Source: Octopus vulgaris (taxonomy: Eukaryota). From it: a DNA stretch of 64,000 nucleotides. The number at the start of each line of letters is the position of its first letter. The stretch's first letter is position 1. Positions 5,618-61,799 of the stretch are shown in pieces. Under the pieces are notes generated by a model, which made no database searches, was not told the DNA's origin, and was given only the letters and a program-made list of their open reading frames with translations. A program made the position numbers and the translations under genes. The DNA lies in assembly GCA_951406725.2 (NCBI GenBank), contig OX597841.1, forward strand, positions 26,288,001 through 26,352,000, read 5' to 3'.

Positions 5618-6655
5618 GGATGCGGCGAGCTGGCAGAATCATCAGCACGCCGGGCGAAGTACTTAACGGGATTTCGCCTGTTTTTTACGTTCTGAGTTCA
5701 AATTCCGCCGTGGTCGACTTTGCCTTTCATCGTTTCGGGGTCGATAAAATTAGATCCATTTGAGCGCCGGGGTCGCTGTAATCGACTGACCACCTCTCCC
5801 TATATTTCAGACTTAGCAAAATCATTTTTAATATAGTTTATTAAGGCAGCGAGCCGATAAAATCGTTGGTACGCCGGACAAAATGCTCTGCGGTTTTTCG
5901 TCCGCTTTTACGATCTGAGTTCAAATTCTTTCATCATTTGAGGGTCGATAAAATTAGATCCATTTGAGCACTGGGGTCGCTGTAATCGACTGACCACCTC
6001 TCCACATATTTCAGACTTAGCAAAATCATTTTTAATATCGTTTATTAAGGCAGCGAGCCGATGGAATCGTTGGTACGCCGGACAAAATGCTCCGCGGTAT
6101 TTCGTCCGCTTTTACAATCAGAGTTCAAATTCTTTCATCATTTCAGGGTCGATAAAATAAGATCCATTTGAGCACTGGGGTCGCTGTAATCGACTGACCA
6201 CCTCTCCCTATATTTCAGACTTAGCAAAATCATTTTTAATATCGTTTATTAAGGCAGCGAGTTAATGGAATCGTTGGTACGCCGGACAAAATGCTCCGCG
6301 GTATTTCGTCCGCTTTTACAATCTGAGTTCAAATTCTTTCATCATTTCAGGGTCGATAAAATAAGATCCATTTGAGCACTGGGGTCGCTGTAATCGACTG
6401 ACCACCTCTCCCTATATTTCAGACTTAGCAAAATCATTTTTAATATCGTTTATTAAGGCAGCGAGCCAAAGGAATCGTTGGTACGCCGGACAAAATGCTC
6501 TGCGGTATTTCGTCCGCTTTTACGATCTGAGTTCAAATTCTTTCAAGGTCGACTTTGCTTTTCATCATTTCAGGGTCGATAAAATGAGATCCATTTGAGC
6601 ACTGGGGTCGCTATAGTCAACTGACCCCCTCTTCTCATGTTTCAGTCCTAGCATA
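5618..6655 (+). mobile_element. Tandem array of five diverged SINE-B copies including heads, 204-bp period
   Basis: Heads at ~5619, 5843, 6047, 6251, 6455; core GAGTTCAAATTC..GGGTCGATAAAAT..CACTGGGGTCG. Confidence 0.85.
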
Positions 6656-6689
6656 AAGGCTTTTATGCTATCTGTTTATCTATCTAGTG

Positions 6690-7080
6690 GTCTTTTTCGT
6701 AGACTTTTCTCCCCACGGATAAACCTTACTTGGTTTCCCCTTTACACCATATATCATAACACTGTGATACACGATCCCTATTGATCGTTTTTTTCCCCTC
6801 TTCCCCTTTCTTTCCCCTTTTTTCTTTTTTCATTTCTCTTTTCTTTTGTTCCTTTTCCTTTTCTTTTTTTTATTTTCATTTATTTAAAAAAAATTTTATT
6901 TTTTATTTATTTATTTTTTTTTGTTCTTTTCTTCCCTTTTACGATCCCTCTTGATCGAAAACCTACGCCACCCCTTTTTTTGTTTCTTTTGTTTTTTGTT
7001 TTTTTCATCCCCCAAAAGAAAAGCTCTACCTTGTAACTTGTCCCATCTGTGTGCAGCCCTGTGTGGTCAATAAAGAAACT
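6690..7080 (+). mobile_element. Probable LINE 3' UTR whose terminus resembles the SINE-B tail
   Basis: Ends TTGTCCCATCTGTGTGCAGCCCTGTGTGGTCAATAAAGAAAC versus SINE-B TTGTCCCCTCTGTGTTTAGCCCCTTGTGGGTAATAAAGAAAT. Confidence 0.5.
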
Positions 7081-7221
7081 TATCTAAATAGCTAGCTAGC
7101 TAGTTAGATAGATAGATAAGCAGATAGATAGACAGGCAGATAGGTAAACAGATAGATAGGCAGATAGGTAAACAGATAGATAGGCAGATAGGTAAACAGA
7201 TAGATAGGCAGATAGGTAAAC

Positions 7222-9088: not shown

Positions 9089-9483
9089 GCATCTGTCTAT
9101 ACTACAATTATCGGAACCTTGTTAGTCCCTGTTACCATTAGTTTCAAGTGACTCAGGCAATGTGAAGTGTCTGTCTTTAAGGATGGGTGGGCATTTTATC
9201 GGTTGTATCTACCAACTGGAGACTACGTAAAACTCAATAAATACTTTACCTAAAGTCTACCTAAAGAGCACAAGTAGGCACTGTAAAGTATTCAGTGTTT
9301 TGCAGCTAATTGTAACGTGTACTGACGCGGGATATGTAAATGTGAAAGAGAAATGAATACACTAACTCTATGATTATTATTGAATACTCTGCAATTTAAT
9401 ATATTCAAGATGCTTAAAATTTTATTACCCTATTTTTGTTAAGGAACGCTGCCTTCATTTCAATGGATTTCAAAAGTAATGAA

Positions 9484-10461
9484 TTATAATTCTTTACTGC
9501 CCACAAGGGGCGAAACATAGAGGGGACAAACAAGGACAGACATAGGTATTAAGTCGATTACATCGACCCCAGTGCGTAACTGGTACTTTATTTATCGACC
9601 CCGAAAGGATGAAAGGCAAAGTCGACCTCGGCGGAATTTGAACTCAGAACGTAACGACAGACGAAATACCTATTTCTTTATTACCCAGAAGGGGCTAAAC
9701 ATAGAGGGGACAAACAAGAACAGACATAGGTATTAAGTCGATTACATCGACCCCAGTGCGTAACAGGTACTTAATTTATCGACCCCGAAAGGATGAAAGG
9801 CAAAGTCGACCTCGGCGGAATTTGAACTCAGAACGTAACGACAGATGAAATACCTATTTCTATTTCTTTACTACCCACAAGGGGCTAAAGACAGAGGGGA
9901 CAAACAAGGACAGGCATAGGGATTAAGTCGATTACATCGACCCCAGTGCGACACTGGTACTTTATTTATCGACCCCGAAAGGATGAAAGGCAAAGTCGAC
10001 CTCGGCGGAATTTGAACTCAGAACGTAACGACAGACGAAATACCTATTTCTTTATTACCCACAAGGGGCTAAAGACAGAGGGGACAAACAAGGACAGACA
10101 TAGGTATTAAGTCGATTACATCGACCCCAGTGCGTAACTGGTACTTTATTTATCGACCCTGAAAGGATGAAAGGCAAAGTCGACCTCGGCGGAATTTGAA
10201 CTCAGAACGTAACGACAGACGAAATACCTATTTCTTTATTACCCACAAGGGGCTAAACACAGAGGGGACAAACAAGGACAGACATAGGTATTAAGTCGAT
10301 TACATCTACCCCAGTGCGTAACTGGTGCTTAATTTATCGACCCCGGAAGGATGAAAGGCAAAGTCGACCTCGGCGGAATTTGAACTCAGAACGTAACGAC
10401 AGACGAAATACCGCTAAGCGTTTCGCCCGGCGCGCTAACGTTTCTGCCAGCTCGCCGCCTT
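9484..10461 (-). mobile_element. SINE-B concatemer: one head plus five ~184-bp bodies, 12-bp TSD
   Basis: Junction GAAATACCTATTTC at 9663, 9847, 10037, 10221; head near 10410-10461; AAAAGTAATGAA at 9472-9483 and 10462-10473. Confidence 0.9.
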
Positions 10462-10519
10462 AAAAGTAATGAAATGATTTAGTAAAATAGCTTTGTCATT
10501 ATCGAGTTGGTGTTCGCCT

Positions 10520-11276: not shown

Positions 11277-11881
11277 AGGTGTTGAGCTGGCAGAATCGTT
11301 ACCGTGCTGGATGAAATGTTTAGCAGTATTTCGCCCATCACTGCGTTCTGAGTTCGAATTCCGCCGAGGTCGACTTTGTCTTTCATATTTTTCAGGGTCG
11401 ATAAATTAAGTACCAGTGAAACACTGGGTCGATGTAATCGACTAGTCTCCCACCACCCCACAAAATTTCAGGCCTTGTGCCTATAGTTGAAAGGATTATT
11501 AATGTGGCGGGTTGGAAAGTCAGAAAGGTGGCACAATCGGCAGCGCGTCGGACAAAATGCTTAGTGGTATTTTGTCCATCATTACGTTCTGAGTTCGCAT
11601 TCCGCCGAGGTCGACTTTCGTTTCGAGGTCGATAAAATAAGTACCAGTTGGATACTGGGGTCGATGCAATCGACTAAACCCCTTCCAGTTGATTTCAAGC
11701 TTTGTGTCTATAACAGAAATGGTTGTCCGTCTTTACGTTCTGAGTTCAAATTCTGCCTAGGTCGAGTTTGCATTTTATCGTTTCGAGGTCTATAAAATTA
11801 GTACCAGTTGGATACTGGGGTCGATGTAATCGACCGGTCCCCTCCCCCAAAATTACAGGCCTTGTGCCTTTAGTAGAAACG

Positions 11882-11882
<1 letters not shown>
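11277..11882 (+). mobile_element. Cluster of ~3 SINE-B-related copies with an alternative 3' tail ending in (TTA)n
   Basis: GAGCTGGCAGAATCGTTA..TTCTGAGTTC..GGTCGATAAA..AGTACCAGT; tail CAGGCCTTGTGCCT..AGAAA.GATTATT. Confidence 0.8.
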
Positions 11883-11929
<47 letters not shown>

Positions 11930-14106: not shown

Positions 14107-14440
14107 TATGGCTCAGTGGTTAGAGCGTCGAGCTTACGATCGTGAGGTTGTGAGTTCTAATTCGGTCCGGGCTGCGTGTTGTGTTCTTGAGCAAGGCACT
14201 TTATTTCACGTTGCTCCAGTTCACTCAGCTGTAGAAATGAGTTGCGACGTCACTGGTGCCAAGCTGTATCGACCTTTGTCTTTCCCTTGGATAACACTGG
14301 TGGCGTGGAGAGAGGAGGCTGGTATGCATGGGCGACTGCTGGTCTTCCATAAACAACCTTGCCCGGACTTGTGTCTAGGAGGGTAACTTTCTAGGTGCAA
14401 TCCCATGGTCATTCACGACCGAAGGGGGTCTTTACCCTTA
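14107..14440 (+). mobile_element. SINE-D: tRNA-like head with Meta-like central domain
   Basis: A box TGGCTCAGTGG, B-box-like GAGTTCTAATTC, then TTGTGTTCTTGAGCAAGGCACTTTATTTCAC..CCAGTTCACTCAGCTGTAGAAATGAGT. Confidence 0.75.
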
Positions 14441-14603
14441 TATGTTTGTATGTATGTATCTATGCTTACATATATGCATAAATACACGCACACATACACG
14501 CAAAATCACTTACTCTAGTGAACGGGATGAAAATCCGCTTCACACTATATTTACACACATACACACACACACACACAGACACACACACACACACATATAC
14601 ATA

Positions 14604-15065
14604 CAGGGTGCGGTGAACAAACTGTCGTCTAAATTGCGCAAAAGGGAAAATAACACTAACATCTCATTTTAATAGATATATTTCCCAAAATTGTATAAAA
14701 ATATCTTGAAATACTTAGAATTAAATTTATTCAATAAAATCGCCATTGGCTTCAACCACGCCCCACCCCCAGATTACTTTGGAATGTCTTGCAACTCTTC
14801 TGGATGGTCTCCTTGTTTCCTTTAGTGAATGCTGCCATAATCCTTGCCTTCAGTTTCTTTTTTGGTGTTACAAAGAGTTTTGTTCGTCTCTTGGTCAACT
14901 GCGCCCTACACATTATAATCAATGGGGCCGCAGTCTGGAGACTTAGGGGGCCAGCTGCTAGGGATGTGCTCGCAGAAATTTTCTGATAGTCGTGACTGTT
15001 GCCAGACTTAAAGGTCTTCCAGCAGCCACCCTTTTCACCCAGGGCAGCACTACCTCCTCCAGGTA
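14604..15065 (-). mobile_element. Tc1/mariner-superfamily (maT/DD37D-like) transposon remnant
   Basis: Terminus TA-CAGGGTG at 14602; minus strand ENFCEHIPSSWPPKSPDCGPIDYNV*GAV (WPPxSPDxNPxDY motif), then KLKARIMAAF..EANGDFIE. Confidence 0.8.
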
Positions 15066-15071
15066 CTTGAT

Positions 15072-15638
15072 GTATTACCCACAAGGGGCTAAACAAAGAG
15101 GGTGACAAACAAGGACAGACAAACGGATTAAGTCGATTACATCGACCCCAGTGCGTAACTGGTACTTAATTTATCGACCTCGAAAGGATGAAAGGCAAAG
15201 TCGACCTCGGCGGAATTTGAACGTAACGAAAGACGAAATACCTATTTCTTTACTACCCATAAGGGGCTAAACAAAGAGGGGACAAACAAGGACAGACGAA
15301 TGGATCAAGTCGATTACATCGACCCCAGTGCGTAACTGGTACTTAATTTATCGACCTCGATAGGATGAAAGGCAAAGTCGACCTCGGCGGAATTTGAACT
15401 CAGAACGTAGCGGCAGACGAAATACCTATTTCTTTACTACCCACAAGGGGCTAAACATAGAGGGGACGAACAAGGACAGACAAACGAATTAAGTCGATTA
15501 CATCGACCCCAGTGCGTAACTGGTACTTAATTTATCGACCTCGAAAGGATGAAAGGCAAAGTCGACCTCGGCGGAATTTGAACTCAGAACGTAACGGCAG
15601 ACGAAATACGGCTACGCATTTCGCCCGGCGTGCTAACT
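15072..15638 (-). mobile_element. SINE-B concatemer: partial head plus three bodies
   Basis: Junction GAAATACCTATTTC at 15235 and 15419. Confidence 0.9.
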
Positions 15639-17581: not shown

Positions 17582-17802
17582 TATTTCTTTACTACCCACA
17601 AGGGGCTAAACACAGAGGGAACAAACAAGGACAGACAAACGGATTAAGTCGATTACATCGACCCCAGTGCGTAACTGGTACTTAATTTATCGACCCCGAA
17701 AGGATGAAAGGCAATGTTGACCTCGGCGGAACTTGAACTCAGAACGAATCGGCAGACGAAATACAGCTACGCATTTCGCCCGGCGTGCTAACGGTTCTGC
17801 CA
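17582..17802 (-). mobile_element. SINE-B monomer with 9-bp TSD, inserted in a decayed tRNA-like head
   Basis: GACAATAAC on both sides; flanks join to GTGGCCTGGTTGGTAAGG..GTTCAGTTCC. Confidence 0.85.
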
Positions 17803-18125
17803 GGACAATAACGCCGCGCGTTCAGTTCCGGATCTCTCGACGTGTTTGATTTTTGAACCTGGACGGTTGAAGAATGCAAGGATTTTTTTTCTGGGGTGGA
17901 GGGAACTATGGGTCGGTATATTATCAATCAGCTCAATAATCCAGTTTCAGAAAACCATAATTCCTGTATCACTAAGAAGAATTTGTCGAATCAGTTTTTG
18001 CAGCAAAGCCTAGGTTACCTTTATGGCTTACCGAAAATACTCATATGGAAGGAAACTTATTACTTAATACAAGAGTGGAGAATATGTCAAAGTTCTTGAA
18101 CCAAAATATCTAAAACTTAAATCAT

Positions 18126-33111: not shown

Positions 33112-33149
33112 TATTAATTAACGAGAGATGGATTTCGTATTAGACCTTT

Positions 33150-33762
33150 ATCATCATCATCATTGTTCGACTGTGGTCGAGACATTGGAATTTACCATGC
33201 TACGCCAGACTTCATGGTCCATCATGGCATTCCGGAGGTCCTGTTGCTGGATGCCTGTATCCCTGGAGATTACATCAGAGTAGGAGAGTGTGCGCTCTCT
33301 GGTATTGCGAGTAGATGGCTTCCAGAGGAGAAGAGGAGAAATTACCTCTTTTTCAGCTCTGCAACAATGTCCAGCAAACTGGACTCTTCTACCTTTCACA
33401 AGAGATGATATGTATGTATATATATATCATCATCATCATTGTCTCGACAGTGGTCGAGACAATGGAATTTACCATGCTACGCCAGACTTCACGGTCAATC
33501 ATGGCATTACGGAGGTCCTGTTGCTGGATGCCTGTATCCCTGGAGATTACATCAGGGTAGGAGAGTGTGCGCCCTCTGGTATTGCGAGTAGATGGCTTCC
33601 AGAGGAGAAGAGTAGAAATTACCTCTTTTTCAGCTCTACAACAATGTCCAGCAAACTGGACTCTCCTACCTTTCACAAGAGATGACACAGGTGGTGGTTT
33701 CCCATATATTTGCATTTTGGTTGGATGGCGCTTCCACGAGAGATTTTGAGCTTTTATACCAA
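33150..33762 (-). mobile_element. Two tandem 3' fragments of an RTE-clade LINE with (GAT)n tails
   Basis: SWKRHPTKMQIYG..VKGRRVQFAGHCCRAEKEVISTLLLWKP..RGRTLSYPDVISRDTG..DLRNAMIDREVWRSMV; copies at 33150-33408 and 33426-33762. Confidence 0.85.
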
Positions 33763-34859: not shown

Positions 34860-36064
34860 ATTGCGGCGTTCCTGAAGTAGATCCAACGGAAGTGTACCAC
34901 AACTGCGGATGACACCGGGGTAGCCTAAAATGTGGTGGTCCGCTTGTGCCAAATCTGGCGAATCGGGTGGTTGGCGGAAGCGATACCATGATGCTTTTGG
35001 CGAGAACCTCACGAGAGGGTAGAGCTCTGCGACAAAGTGCCTTGTCGTCGTGAAGAACCCAATTCTTCGCACTCCACAGATTCGGTCGCCTTCCCCCAAA
35101 TGTTCTCCCACAGATGCTTCAAAACGTTGCAGTATGACCCTTAACTGACCGTCTTGCCCTGGTGGACAAATTCTCGATGCACAGTACCACATTTCCGGGG
35201 GTGACGCTTATGGCTGGTACTCCGGATCATTCATCAACCCCCAAACCCCCGAGACTTTCTTCCGCTTTTGAATCACCTGTTTCACTCGAAACACTGTATA
35301 CTTCTCATTGCCTCATCGCTGTAAGCATGCTCGATGTTTCCAAGTTTAACGCAAACTTTCATGTTGGCTCTTTGTTCCAACTTCCTGGCCATGACAAAAT
35401 CGCGAACTACAACACACACGTGATCACAAAAACACAAGTTTCACAGCTTGTTAACCCTTTCATTACCAACCCAGCTGAAACTGGCTCTGGCTCAGAGTAC
35501 AAATGTCTTGTTTTCATAAGTTTTTCATTAAAATCTTCCACCAAACCTTAGTCACAATTTATGTTCTTAACACCAGCTGAATGATAACTAAGTTATTTTA
35601 CTAAATTCTTTGTTATATTTAAAGTAATTGAAAGAAACACAGAGCATCTCAACAGAAATATGGTAACAAAAGGGTTAAAATATATAATAGAGAAACAATT
35701 CTTAACCCTTTTGATACCAACCTGGTTGAAACCACCTCTGGCTCTGTAGTACAAATGTCTTGTTTTCATAAGTTTTGAATTAAAATCTTCCACCAAACCT
35801 CAGTCACAATTTATGTTCCTAACACCAGCTTAATAATAACTAAGTTATTTTACTAAATTCTTTGTTATATTTAAAGTAATTGAAAGAAATACAGAGCATC
35901 TCAAAATAAAAGCAGTAACGAAAGGGTTAAGTAAACACAGCGATGTTCACTCGGCACACTGCCTAATGAAGGTCACAGCTAGCTTTTACTACGCATGCAA
36001 CCGTGTGCTGCCGTCTGTTGGCGCGCTACAGAACGAGTCCGGGAACTTTTTGATACAGCCACAT
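34860..36064 (-). mobile_element. Mariner remnant interrupted by a piggyBac-like MITE pair
   Basis: QPPDSPDLAQADHHILG resembles HPPYSPDLAPSDYHLF; homologous uninterrupted copy at 54112-54630. Confidence 0.75.
35455..35926. mobile_element. Two tandem piggyBac-like MITEs, ~220 bp each
   Basis: TTAA-CCCTTT...AAAGGG-TTAA at 35455-35674 and 35706-35926. Confidence 0.8.
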
Positions 36065-36241: not shown

Positions 36242-36469
36242 TATTTCTTTACCACCCACAAGGGGCTAAACACAGAGGGGACAAACAAGGACAGACAAAG
36301 GGATTAATTCGATTACATCGATCCCAGTGCGTAACTGGTACTTAATTTATCGACCCCGAAAGGATGAAAGGCAAAGTCGACCTCGGCGGAATTTGAACTC
36401 AGAACGTAACGGCAGACGAAATACGTCTACGCATTTCGTCCGGCGTGCTAACGTTTCTGCCAGCTCGGC
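36242..36469 (-). mobile_element. SINE-B monomer flanked by a 41-bp duplication
   Basis: 36201-36241 matches 36470-36510 with 2 mismatches. Confidence 0.88.
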
Positions 36470-36735: not shown

Positions 36736-36952
36736 TATTTCTTCACTGCCCACAAGGGGCTAAACACAGAGGGGACAAACAAGGACAGACATAGGTATTA
36801 AGTCGATTATATCGAACCCCAGTGCGTAACTGGTACTTAATTTATCGACCCCGAAAGTATGAAAGGCAAAGTCGACCTCGGCGGAATTTGAACTCAGAAC
36901 GTAGCGGCAGACGAAATACCGCTAAGCATTTCGCCTGGCTTGCTAACAATTC
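36736..36952 (-). mobile_element. SINE-B monomer with 18-bp TSD
   Basis: ACCAGCGTTGCACTAACC on both sides. Confidence 0.88.
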
Positions 36953-37124
36953 TACCAGCGTTGCACTAACCATTGCTATCACCATTTAGACCGATTTCTT
37001 AAAGGTGTCTCTTTTAAGTCAACCTCACCTTTATTCCTACCCTTTTCTCCCCTTCACTTTTTTTCTCTCTCTCTCTGTTTCATTGTATCTTCATTCTCCA
37101 CTCCTTCATGCATAAACACTAGTA

Positions 37125-37685
37125 GGAAGCAATCCGTCGGTTCCGACGACGAGGGTTCCGGTTGATCCGAATCAACGGAACAGCCTGCTCGTGAAATTAA
37201 CGTGCAAGTGGCTGAGCACCCCACAGACACGTGTACCCTTAACGTAGTTCTCGGGGATATTCAGCGTGACTGTATCTTTTTCGGATGGCTGGATGGATGG
37301 AAGCACTCCGTCGGTTACGACGACGAGGGTTCCGGTTGATCCGAATCAACGGAACAGCCTGCTCGTGAAATTAACGTGTAAGTGGCTGAGCACTCCACAG
37401 ACACGTGTACCCTTAACGTAGTTCTCGGGGATATATTCAGCGTGACACAGAGAGTGACAAGGCCGGCCCTTTGAAATACAGGTACAAGAGAAACAGGAAG
37501 TAAGAGTGAGAGAAAGTTGTGGTGAAAGAGTACAGCAGGGATCACCACCATCCCCTGCCGGAGCCTCGTGGAGCTTTTAGGTATTTTCGCTCAATAAACA
37601 CTCGCAATGCCCGGTCTGGGAATCGAAACCACGATGCTACGACCGCGAGTCCGCTGCCCTAACCACTGGGCCATTGTCCTCCACG
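37125..37685 (-). mobile_element. SINE-C full copy (37300-37685) plus an extra 3' fragment (37125-37270)
   Basis: Reverse complement of 45577-45960. Confidence 0.88.
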
Positions 37686-46068: not shown

Positions 46069-46322
46069 TGGACGAGAAATTGCTTGTGAAATACAATAGG
46101 AGCTGGAACGATAGCGATGGTATTTAAACGTTGTGGTTTGGTTACCTGTGCCCACCTGCGAATGGGGAGGTGTTGCGGTTGAGGGCCGAAATACCTAATG
46201 TTCGTCGGATACTTTGACGGCATCAGTTCCTTCCTGTTAATTCTACATTTACCAAACCTGAATGAAATGGAAACATCTTCTTTTCGACAAATAATTGATA
46301 TCAAAACAAAGAAAATCCTTAA

Positions 46323-46799
46323 TTACATTATTTCCATTTGACGGATATTTGTCCTCATCTTGTTTGTTGTTAACACAACGTTTCGGCTGATATACCCTCA
46401 GCCTTCATCAGGTGTCTTGGGGGAATTTCGAACCTCGGTTCTCATTCCTTAGGTATTTTCGATATTATTATTATTATTATTTACATTATTTACATTTGAC
46501 GGATATTTGTCCTCATCTTGTTTGTTGTTAACACAACATTTCGGCTGATATACCCTCCAGCCTTCATCAGGTGTCTTAGGGAAATTTCAAACCTGGGTTC
46601 TCATTCCTTAGGTATTTTCGATATTATTATTATTATTATCATTATTATTATTATTTACATTATTTACATTCGACGGATATTTGTCCTCATCTTGTTTGTT
46701 GTTAACACAACGTTTCGGCTGATATACCCTCCAGCCTTCATCAGGTGTCTTGGGGAAATTTCAGTTCAAACCTGGGTTCTCATTCCTCAGGTATTTTCG

Positions 46800-46873
<74 letters not shown>

Positions 46874-46943: not shown

Positions 46944-47103
46944 GTTATTATTATTTACATTATTTACATTTTTTATATTTGACGGATATTTGTCCTCATC
47001 TTGTTTGTTGTTAACACAACGTTTCGGCTGATGTACCCTCCAGCCTTCATCAGGTGTCTTGGGGGGAAATTTCGAACCTGGGTTCTCTTTCCTAAGGTAT
47101 TGT
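46323..47103 (-). repeat. Four-copy tandem repeat, each unit with a minimal type I hammerhead motif, separated by (TAA)n
   Basis: Minus GACAC-CTGATGA-A-GGCTG..CAGCC-GAAA-C-GTT-GTGTT at 46372-46416, 46530-46575, 46704-46749, 47013-47058. Confidence 0.8.
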
Positions 47104-48840: not shown

Positions 48841-48864
48841 AACTAGCCAACGAAGTGACATACC

Positions 48865-49645
48865 TATATCTTTATTACCCACAAGGCGCTAAACACAGAG
48901 GGGACAAACAAGGACAGACATAGGTATTAAGTCGATTATATCGACCCCAGTGCGTAACTGGTACTTAATTTATCGACCCCGAAAGGATGAAAGGCAAAGT
49001 CGACCTCGGCGGAATTTGAACTCACAACGTAACGCAGACGAAATACCTATTTCTTTATTACCCACAAGGGGCTAAACACAGAGGGGACAAACAAGGACAG
49101 ACATAGGTATTAAGTCGATTACATCGACTCCAGTGCGTAACTGGTACTTAATTTATCGACCCCGAAAGGATGAAAGGCAAAGTCGACCTCGGCGGAATTT
49201 GAACTCACAACGTAACGCAGACGAAATACCTATTTCTTTATTACCCACAAGGGGCTAAACACAGAGGGGACAAACAAGGACAGACATAGGTATTAAGTCG
49301 ATTACATCGACCCCAGTGCGTAACTGGTACTTAATTTATCGACCCCGAAAGGATGAAAGGCAAAGTCGACCTCGGCGGAATTTGAACTCAGAACGTAACG
49401 CAGACGAAATACCTATTTCTTTATTACCCACAAGGGGCTAAACACAGAGGGGACAAACAAGGACAGGCATAGGTATTAAGTCGATTACATCGACCCCAGT
49501 GCGTAACTGGTACTTAATTTATCGACCCCGAAAGGATGAAAGGCAAAGTCGACCTCGGCGAAATTTGAACTCAGAACTAGGCGGCAGACGAAATACCGCT
49601 AAGCATTTCGCCCGGCGTGCTAACGTTTCTGCCAGCTCGCCGGCT
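48865..49645 (-). mobile_element. SINE-B concatemer: head plus four 183-bp bodies, 11-bp TSD
   Basis: Junctions at 49040, 49223, 49406; AGTGACATACC at 48854 and 49646. Confidence 0.9.
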
Positions 49646-49962
49646 AGTGACATACCAACCTACCAAAACAAGCAACACGATTCAACCAGCCAAGCCAGAA
49701 AGCTAGGAAGTCACCAAACCAAACCAACCACAAAGTTACAAACCAAAACGTCGAAACCGAAGCGAACCGACCAAACATCCACCCATCCTTCCATCCATCA
49801 AATCAACGTCACACATACACCAGCAAGAACTACATACACACACCAACAACACACTAACAACACACACACACACACGCACCAACACGCGCACACATACACC
49901 AACACACACAAACACACACCACCACTAACAACACACACACTAACAATACACACACCAACAAC

Positions 49963-54047: not shown

Positions 54048-54110
54048 CCGTTTGTCTGTCCTTGTTTGTCCCCTCTGTGTTTAGCCCCTTGTGGGCAATA
54101 AAGAAATAAG
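54048..54110 (+). mobile_element. Isolated SINE-B 3' tail
   Basis: CCGTTTGTCTGTCCTTGTTTGTCCCCTCTGTGTTTAGCCCCTTGTGGGCAATAAAGAAATA. Confidence 0.85.
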
Positions 54111-57294: not shown

Positions 57295-57816
57295 TTTACT
57301 CTTTTACTCTTTTACTTGTTTCAGTCATTTGACTGCGGCCATGCTGGAGCACCGCCTTTAGTCGAGCAAATCGACCCCGGGACTTATTCTTTGTAAGCCC
57401 AGTACTTATTCTATCGGTCTCTTTTACTTGTTTCAGTCATTTGACTGTAGCCGTGCTGGAGCACCGCCTTTAGTCGAGCAAATCGACCCCGGGACTTATT
57501 CTTTGTAAGCCCAGTACTTATTCTATCGGTCTCTTTTGCCGAACCTCTAAGTGACGGGGACGTAAACACACCAGCATCGGTTGTCAAGCAATGCTAGGGG
57601 GACAAACACAGACACACAAACATATACACACACACTTATGTATATATACATATATACGACAGGCTTCTTTCAGTTTCCGTCTACCAAATCCACTCACAAG
57701 GCATTGGTCGGCCCGGGCTATAGGAGAAGACACTTGCCCAAGATGCCACGCAGTGGGACTGAACCCGGAACCATGTGGTTGGTAAGCAAGCTACTTACAC
57801 AGCCACTCCTACGCCT
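57295..57816 (-). mobile_element. SINE-A with a duplicated ~115-bp 3' segment
   Basis: CTTTTACTTG..CTATCGGTCT present twice (57309, 57421). Confidence 0.9.
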
Positions 57817-60950: not shown

Positions 60951-61611
60951 GTATCCTTTCGGTTTGAACGGCAGTTTTTTCTAGCGGTGTCATATGAAAT
61001 TGTCACCCATAATTATGACCCTAGAATCGATCTATTGCATTTCAATCGCTTTTAGGGTTAGGGTTAGGGGTGTGGGAAGGGTATCTTTTTTTCTTCACAA
61101 ATGTAAATAAACCCAATCTGTTTCTTAAACGGGGGACATATTCATACGGCACAGAATGCTTTTTAACTCAATAGACGTCAGTGATTGGTTGAAATTGCAG
61201 AAATTGAAGAAAAAAAACAACTAATATCTTACAAACTATAGAATTTTCTCAATAAAGCCAAGAGTAAAAGATGTTTTATAAACACATTCTACCAGTATAC
61301 GAAGTTTAAAACTTTTTAGTTACCTCGAAATTATGTTAAAAACTGCCGTTCAAACCGAAAAGATCCGTTTCTTAAATGAGGGACATATTCATATGGCACA
61401 GAATGTTTTCACCTCAATAGACGTTATTGATTGGTTGAAATTGCAGAAATTGAAGAAAAAAAACAACAAATATCTTTCAAACTTTAGAATTTTCTCAATA
61501 AAGCCAAGAGAAAAAGATGTTTTATAAACACATTCTACCAGTATACGAAGTTTAAAATTTTTTAGTTACCTAGAAATTATGTTAAAAACTGCCGTTCAAA
61601 CCGAAAAGATC
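60951..61611. mobile_element. TIR-bearing MITE with internal (TTAGGG)3 and a duplicated right half
   Basis: Left GTATCCTTTCGGTTTGAACGGCAGTTTT; right AAAACTGCCGTTCAAACCGAAAAGATCC ending at 61366 and 61611. Confidence 0.75.
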
Positions 61612-61799
61612 CATTTATTTTTTCGGAATTACAATCTTAATGCTTAAAACGAACACATCCGGAAAAAATACGATATCTAGTAAGCTAGATTAACTTAGCC
61701 ACAAGTTATCACAATGAAATGTAACAATAACAATTTTTTTTAGAGGTAAAAAAGACACACTCTTACGGAACTCCGAAATACACGTCCAGCTCTGGCGAC

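Follow-up and report, generated by a model that had tools for sequence, protein, structure and literature searches.

Head-plus-bodies arrays of a tRNA-type SINE in Octopus vulgaris and a possible priming-word origin of their fixed junction

In the window analyzed here, a 64-kb stretch of DNA (64,000 nucleotides), a short interspersed element (SINE) on the minus strand forms three arrays, in which a single head is followed by 5, 3, and 4 bodies, respectively. All internal junctions of these arrays have the same breakpoint, and two of the arrays lie within one target site duplication (TSD) each. On balance, we favor the explanation that the arrays are retroposed concatemers, that is, copies of multimeric source RNAs that were first joined through microhomology, inserted whole, and reshuffled in register.

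Architecture of the arrays and their junction

The SINE is composed of a 47-nt head with an A-box-like motif (SINE positions 11–21) and a 184-nt body with a B box (positions 75–84), a central domain, and a tail ending in AAAGAAATA. The spacing of the two boxes is 19 nt greater than in a standard tRNA, and neither ARAGORN nor Rfam called a tRNA at the SINE. The element is dispersed, high in copy number, and without a coding frame, and the TSDs of its copies in the window vary in length (9, 11, 12, 18, and about 41 bp). Of the features of a tRNA-type SINE, A and B boxes in the 5ʹ head are present, together with dispersal, TSDs, and a non-coding sequence. Its central domain may be Nin-like. The superfamily comparison considered Nin/Deu, Meta, V, CORE, and Ceph and drew on passages of PMC4758252, PMC5804259, PMC4824008, and PMC5786205; the SINE core words were absent from the text-searchable supplements of these SINE-superfamily papers, alignments given only as figures lay outside this comparison and may bear on the name, and the Meta-type supplement rows looked unlike the array SINE body. 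Besides the three arrays, the window contains three monomers and one tail fragment of the SINE. These and related features are as follows.

9472–9483, minus strand: array 1, 3ʹ TSD copy TTCATTACTTTT, not starting with the GGT word
9484–9670, minus strand: array 1, body 5, terminal, with tail end AAAGAATTA plus TAA
9671–9854, minus strand: array 1, body 4, 184 nt
9855–10044, minus strand: array 1, body 3, 190 nt, with GAAATA doubled at the tail end
10045–10228, minus strand: array 1, body 2, 184 nt
10229–10412, minus strand: array 1, body 1, with B box, central domain, and LINE-like tail
10284–10292, minus strand: word AATACCTAT, which is exactly complementary to ATAGGTATT across the junction (10223–10231)
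10413–10459, minus strand: array 1, head; includes the A-box-like motif and the 5ʹ arm of the head hairpin
10462–10473, minus strand: array 1, 5ʹ TSD copy
15074–15637, minus strand: array 2, whole, of the other subfamily, without TSD; head remnant 15611–15637, bodies 15427–15610, 15243–15426, and 15074–15242
17582–17803, minus strand: monomer, with TSD GTTATTGTC immediately past GAAATA
36242–36467, minus strand: monomer, whose TSD (about 41 bp, two mismatches) is unusually long and begins GGTATT
36736–36959, minus strand: monomer, head altered, with an 18-bp TSD beginning GGTTA
48854–49656, minus strand: array 3, whole, including TSD copies 48854–48864 and 49646–49656 (GGTATGTCACT); bodies 48865–49047, 49048–49230, 49231–49413, and 49414–49597, head 49598–49644
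54053–54108, plus strand: tail-only fragment of the array SINE
57309–57640, minus strand: dimer of a second SINE family, joined at the 7-nt tail/internal microhomology AAAAGAG

There are 16 tails of the SINE in the window, and nine of them are directly followed by a body. At each of these nine internal junctions, GAAATA is joined to GGTATTTC and the inner unit retains its full tail, without 3ʹ truncation; GAAATAGGTATTTC occurs nine times in the window, every time at an internal junction. An extra GAAATA is present at one junction only, between units 3 and 4 of array 1. The TSDs of array 1 (12 bp) and array 3 (11 bp) are both exact, and these two arrays show one full head, head-truncated repeats, and a single TSD, the combination known from the blood clam. 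No TSD of at least 7 bp flanks array 2, which is clipped on both sides and lacks the A box and 8 nt of the last tail. This array interrupts a decayed transposase-like reading frame (14300–15073, minus strand), which is presumably of the mariner type. G70A occurs in 3/3 units of array 2, and a 1-nt deletion at body position 14 in three of the four units of array 3. The preliminary description had claimed one head plus several bodies at three loci, an identical junction, a single TSD around each of two arrays, and array-specific variants, and all of these claims were confirmed. A search of the whole window against Rfam gave nothing at the gathering score and only chance-level local matches.

To follow the junction beyond the window, four of 24 listed sequencing runs were compared with one head-plus-body stretch: X1, X8, and X15 (DNA of organisms A, D, and E, respectively) and X24 (RNA of organism E). 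Per DNA run, 187,000–394,000 contigs matched, related SINE families included. At least 705 contigs in X1 and at least 468 in X8 ended their match exactly at position 10412 and then continued in the tail. This joint ranked highest of the six listed loose ends in X1 and second in X8, and was not among the six listed for organism E. Under a crude k-mer model, the junction share per tail was 0.39–0.54 in A, 0.37–0.45 in D, and 0.11–0.13 in E, these shares being derived from summed contig depths, which are not copy numbers. The listed joints that go back by 173–180 letters were in register with the 184 period. The genome-wide abundance of the junction, for which the preliminary description had proposed a count, is therefore high in organisms A and D and lower in E, and the junction is a family-wide, lineage-enriched feature. 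Because the units differ by 3–5% within arrays and junction-spanning contigs were found in the runs of two organisms, the arrays are not an assembly artefact. In the RNA run of organism E, about 2–6% of tail reads crossed the junction, which was below the DNA estimate for that organism. Although the junction is infrequent in its DNA as well, this low share weighs against the concatemer explanation. Pattern scans with the SINE tail gave no matches in metagenome and viral contigs; the core pattern gave none in viral and prokaryote genomes and two in metagenomes, which were discarded as alignments of only 20 and 48 nt.

Two other joints were observed in these runs. In the DNA of organism A (X1), the SINE head came after GGTATTTCGTCTG, the opening 13 letters of a body, and four additional letters (joint 10461 to 10400, depth 936), as expected of a nested insertion with a TSD at the internal word. 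In the RNA of organism E (X24), the tail was joined to head position 15 (10229/10445), giving a 217-nt unit with no microhomology. This was the strongest RNA joint (960 reads, 154 starts, about 22% of tail reads), and it was also found at low depth in DNA contigs of organisms E and D. Alleles near 1% in DNA rose to 30–38% in the RNA; given these observations, a circle was set aside here in favor of what is probably one highly expressed locus.

The priming word and the junction helix

The letters following GAAATA at the free ends of the SINE resemble one another. In four of the six cases, the target begins with GGTATT, GTTATT, GGTATG, or GGTTAG, which agree with GGTATT at 6, 5, 5, and 3 of six letters, respectively; the remaining two lack the word, which counts against the concatemer and priming explanation. 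Three of the six start with GGT (0.015 in the window background, P about 6e-5), and three are GGTATT or differ from it by a single letter (P about 2e-6). Because these letters are part of the TSD, they derive from the target. They suggest that GGUAUU follows the tail in the template RNA and pairs with the nicked target, or else that the endonuclease prefers this word. Both behaviors have parallels in the covered parts of the literature: the eel UnaL2 primes at a terminal word with slippage (PMC1636434), and the endonuclease of an Entamoeba LINE preferentially nicks at GCATT (PMC1635306).

GGTATT also forms the first six letters of the body. Since the post-tail priming word equals the opening word of the body, the junction is a microhomology joint. 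The fixed breakpoint can thus probably be explained without anticodon cleavage, and the crossover, owing to the microhomology, could fall anywhere within GGTATT and is not confined to the loop. This identity of the two words, as the likely cause of the fixed junction, had been missed in the earlier reading. As the target of array 1 lacks a GGT word, its junction must have arrived with the insertion. Further, a run of four T was found in none of the six elements, indicating that no unit contains a Pol III terminator and that a multimer can be transcribed whole from its single head.

About 50 nt at the end of a different element (7029–7078, plus strand) are 76–82% like the SINE tail; by this resemblance, they are a candidate for the 3ʹ end or 3ʹ untranslated region of the partner LINE. 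No reading frame of the partner LINE was recognized among the long frames of the window. This element end, at 6660–7085 (plus strand), runs into an ATAG microsatellite.

One of the two subfamilies of the SINE carries the word AATACCTAT, whose pairing with the junction was recognized post hoc. In arrays 1 and 3, 9/9 pairs are formed at six of the seven junctions and 8/9 at the seventh, while the two junctions of array 2 form 6 and 4 pairs with their counterparts of the complement; a perfect 9-bp complement appeared in shuffles with a frequency of 0.0013. For the AATACCTAT subfamily, adding the 8 bases past the tail doubled the folding energy of the tail domain from -6.8 to -13.6 in three of four units, and the tail fragment gave a z of -2.43 with the eight extra bases versus -0.29 without them. 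The two common diagnostic changes of this subfamily each complete one pair of the helix, and one of them pairs with a base beyond the copied tail. The share of the subfamily in organisms A, D, and E was 0.47, 0.35, and 0.04, compared with junction shares of 0.39, 0.37, and 0.11, a comparison of three points that proves no trend. Two-sided covariation was found at 0/12 pairs of the helix. A monomer RNA with a plain GGUAUU 3ʹ end would form the identical helix, and array 2, of the other subfamily, has the identical junction, which counts against a reading based on the helix. Multimers seem to have become common in the AATACCTAT lineage, with its 9-bp helix over the junction.

Composition of the units and origin of the arrays

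The mean divergence between units was 4.2% within arrays and 5.6% between them. Comparing the phylogeny of units within and between arrays, as the preliminary description had suggested, we found that units clustered by array (permutation P 0.00065), but that no inner branch in the tree of 15 bodies was strongly supported; arrays 1 and 2 need one change each in this tree, and array 3 needs three. Each array is pure for one of the two subfamilies, which are near 50:50 in organism A (X1), and this argues against independent self-insertions.

Within arrays 1 and 2, the units carry mixed alleles. Array 1 has both alleles at four family-wide, non-CpG sites, with 6 minority family alleles in 40 site calls, compared to 0.4–0.6 expected from private mutation (P at most 0.003 for at least four events). 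Array 2 has mixed alleles at positions 14, 17, and 174, yet all of its units have G70A. Such mixtures cannot be explained by one monomer RNA copied again and again, unless later conversion is invoked, and the simple form of the earlier proposal, repeated copying of one monomer, is contradicted by both arrays. Variants in common mostly occupy adjacent units. At position 14, a T or a deletion is found in 8/9 inner bodies versus 1/6 bodies attached to a head (Fisher P 0.011, for units that are not independent and come from only three arrays). Array lengths, TSDs, and position-specific variants are likewise based on three arrays, and no private position-specific variant is common to arrays 1 and 3, which counts against concatemer sources. 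A multimeric source, which the preliminary description had offered as its alternative, nevertheless fits best. The tie that it had drawn to retrotransposition, rather than to random DNA duplication, is upheld by the one breakpoint, the one TSD, the commonness of the arrays, and the imported junction of array 1.

From the one breakpoint, the one TSD, the absence of T4, the GGTATT-like targets, and the complementary subfamily word, we infer four steps by which concatemers would arise and spread. First, the reverse transcriptase (RT) of the partner LINE would anneal the post-tail GGUAUU to the nicked target and start copying exactly at GAAAUA. Second, a cDNA that has reached the GGUAUU of the body would end like the original primer and could pair again downstream of the tail; the first copies with a head and two bodies would have been made in this way or by a comparable event at the DNA level. 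Third, Pol III starting from the single head would read through every body, so that the multimer itself becomes a source. Each junction, consisting of a tail and the priming word, would then be a priming site: priming at an inner junction would give shorter arrays or monomers with TSDs starting GGT, and priming at the last tail would place the full array at an unrelated target, as in array 1. Fourth, in-register template jumps or unequal exchange would add and mix units. Late change at the DNA level may be superimposed on any mechanism.

The junction might instead be made de novo at each insertion, with the RT at the internal GGUAUU jumping repeatedly to the 3ʹ end of the same monomer RNA or a different one before it copies the head, which is the RT jump of the preliminary description with microhomology as its cause; this and the concatemer source differ solely in how often the junction is remade. 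End-to-end template jumping is on record for the R2 RT (cited in PMC2881922, as far as covered), the head hairpin at the junction site is strong, the junction is identical in both subfamilies, as such re-priming explains, and an analogous dimer exists in the second SINE family. A single template is excluded for array 1 by its minority alleles. Jumps among different RNAs would yield mixed alleles, but random jumps leave the subfamily-pure arrays and the G70A of array 2 unexplained, as well as the variants in adjacent units and the position-14 bias of inner units; we therefore consider this explanation rather unlikely. Equally doubtful is an extended form of the concatemer explanation, in which the concatemer is the replicating form of a SINE lineage, the junction is part of an RNA structure recognized by the LINE protein (AATACCTAT over ATAGGTATT), each headless body is an independent priming site, and re-priming by the RT lengthens the arrays, so that selection on the element would maintain a "rolling" amplification that needs no circle.

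Duplication of DNA after insertion is another conceivable origin: a monomer with a GGTAT TSD has its body flanked by a 5–6-bp direct repeat, which could be expanded in place by slippage or unequal exchange. The TSD of array 3 does begin with GGTAT, common variants lie mainly in adjacent units, unequal recombination has been proposed for bivalve and squamate arrays, and further tandem duplications occur in the window, among them a SINE array of 204-bp units, heads included, at 5724–6545. Against this, the TSD of array 1 supplies no such repeat, and the 9-bp repeat GGGGTCGAT, present twice per unit, has yielded no duplication in 15/15 bodies. The second SINE family, with its 7-nt microhomology, is dimeric at only 1/11 tails, compared with 9/16 here, and the divergence within arrays is not far under that between them. 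We judge this origin improbable.

The preliminary description had also placed the junction at the anticodon-arm position and, as one possibility, derived a circle of about 184 nt from anticodon-loop cleavage. The junction is at SINE position 48, which corresponds to tRNA position 45 or 26, depending on whether the A box or the B box serves as the reference, and neither is the anticodon position. Of the two hairpins described there, the head hairpin is real (-13.4 kcal/mol), but the junction hairpin is weak, with only 5 bp and -1.4 kcal/mol. The whole-unit fold was not unusual (z -0.40), and circular folds of all four units were no better than shuffles (z +0.74, -0.62, +0.77, and +0.33). No hammerhead core was found across the junction on either strand, and there was no ribozyme among the Rfam matches, through which alone other ribozyme folds were covered. 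The one unstranded 150-nt cDNA run of the array-poor organism E, a weak check on the circle, showed neither a pile-up of RNA starts or ends nor an enrichment of the junction. Rolling-circle copying of such an RNA, with a last switch to the full RNA for the head, would account for a junction that joins exact end to start, and one of the circular folds pairs the junction with AATACCTAT; the mixed alleles within arrays add to the evidence against it, and we hold it to be very improbable. Just as hard to credit is self-targeting, in which new copies insert at GGTATTTC of older ones with 5ʹ homology joining, one body per event: the target preference agrees with the internal word and the X1 joint after GGTATTTCGTCTG looks like a nested insertion, but with the two subfamilies near 50:50 in X1, independent insertions would be expected to yield mixed arrays, yet all three are pure, and there is no age gradient along the arrays.

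The window does contain repeats with a hammerhead-like core (CTGATGA, stem, GAAAC), namely tandem units of about 160–174 nt at 46260–46860 and near 47053 (minus strand), with AAT repeats between them. Rfam made no call there. We take these units to be Penelope- or retrozyme-like; they make circular RNAs of retroelements plausible in this host. Retrozymes and hammerhead-bearing retroelements form tandem units of 150–400 nt with exact junctions. The array SINE differs from them: it has a Pol III head, a LINE-like tail, and no unusual circular fold, and the self-cleaving ribozyme in each unit by which retrozymes are recognized was found in it neither as a hammerhead core nor among the Rfam matches.

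Known SINE arrays and other tandem repeats

Read-through priming is known from R1 and R2 elements, and Entamoeba reportedly has recombinant SINE mosaics that arose through template jumping. The closest known structures are the direct TSD-(SINE)n-TSD arrays in the blood clam Scapharca broughtonii (Martelossi et al. 2024, PMC11481361, in the parts covered). As in the octopus, the first unit has a full tRNA head, the others are truncated at one position of the head, and a single TSD bounds the array; inner units in the clam have truncated tails, unlike the full tail of every unit here. About 3% of high-scoring SINEs in the clam are in tandem or palindromic structures, and the share here is, by a crude comparison, roughly tenfold higher. 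Unequal recombination was suggested for the clam, whereas the breakpoint here is the priming word.

The SINE-derived satellites (sSats) of squamates (Vassetzky et al. 2023, PMC10702118) are also tandem repeats of partial SINEs, with one longer terminal unit and the same unit at many loci. They differ in having hundreds of units, a subtelomeric lean, and a DNA-level explanation, with no argument from TSDs or target words in the sections covered; the arrays here are short (3–5 units), dispersed, and bounded by TSDs. According to the covered part of the same paper, the Dip/B1 multimers of jerboa and Alu are multimeric or dimeric SINEs, in which many copies are in multimers and the tandem unit is amplified. 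Their units are full-length monomers or a fixed dimer, in contrast to one head with a variable number of headless bodies. The stringent-type priming of eel UnaL2/UnaSINE (PMC1636434, in part) resembles the present case in its LINE-like tail, terminal initiation word, and re-priming by the RT, but slippage there involves a 5-nt repeat and not a whole 184-nt body.

Arrays of a head and truncated bodies within a single TSD are therefore already known from the blood clam, with related arrays in reptiles; the high frequency of the arrays, the primer-word explanation of the fixed joint, and the junction helix appear to be new. Two octopus repeat studies (PMC13282606 and PMC12988792) do not mention such arrays in the portions covered, and the full texts covered, few of them from subscription journals, yielded no account of the helix or of a junction set by the primer word. 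The squamate and bivalve studies describe a link from SINEs to tandem repeats that is explained, in the parts covered, only through unequal recombination. Under the priming-word model, dispersed SINEs could turn into tandem repeats in a specific way that is open to testing; the implied rule is that head-plus-bodies arrays arise where the priming word recurs internally and no terminator lies between. If at least a third of tails are in arrays, copy numbers and ages have been wrongly estimated for this very abundant repeat, and the arrays preserve the template choice of the RT in vivo.

The second SINE family in the window, with a tail of GAGTAAAA repeats, obeys the implied rule; its single copy with a head and two bodies is joined at the tail/internal microhomology, at one of its 11 tails. 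At 5623–6650 (plus strand), a related SINE forms 204-bp units including the head, between two different terminal copies. This array looks like the product of DNA-level unequal exchange, in contrast to the head-plus-bodies arrays. Three adjacent copies of a related SINE are present at 11284–11900 (plus strand), and the third of them is headless and joined to the tail of the second, near the same internal site (1/4 tails of that family). Other repeats show further two-copy tandem duplications of 174–277 bp at 33149–33685, 35451–35930, 37125–37446, and 61116–61616.
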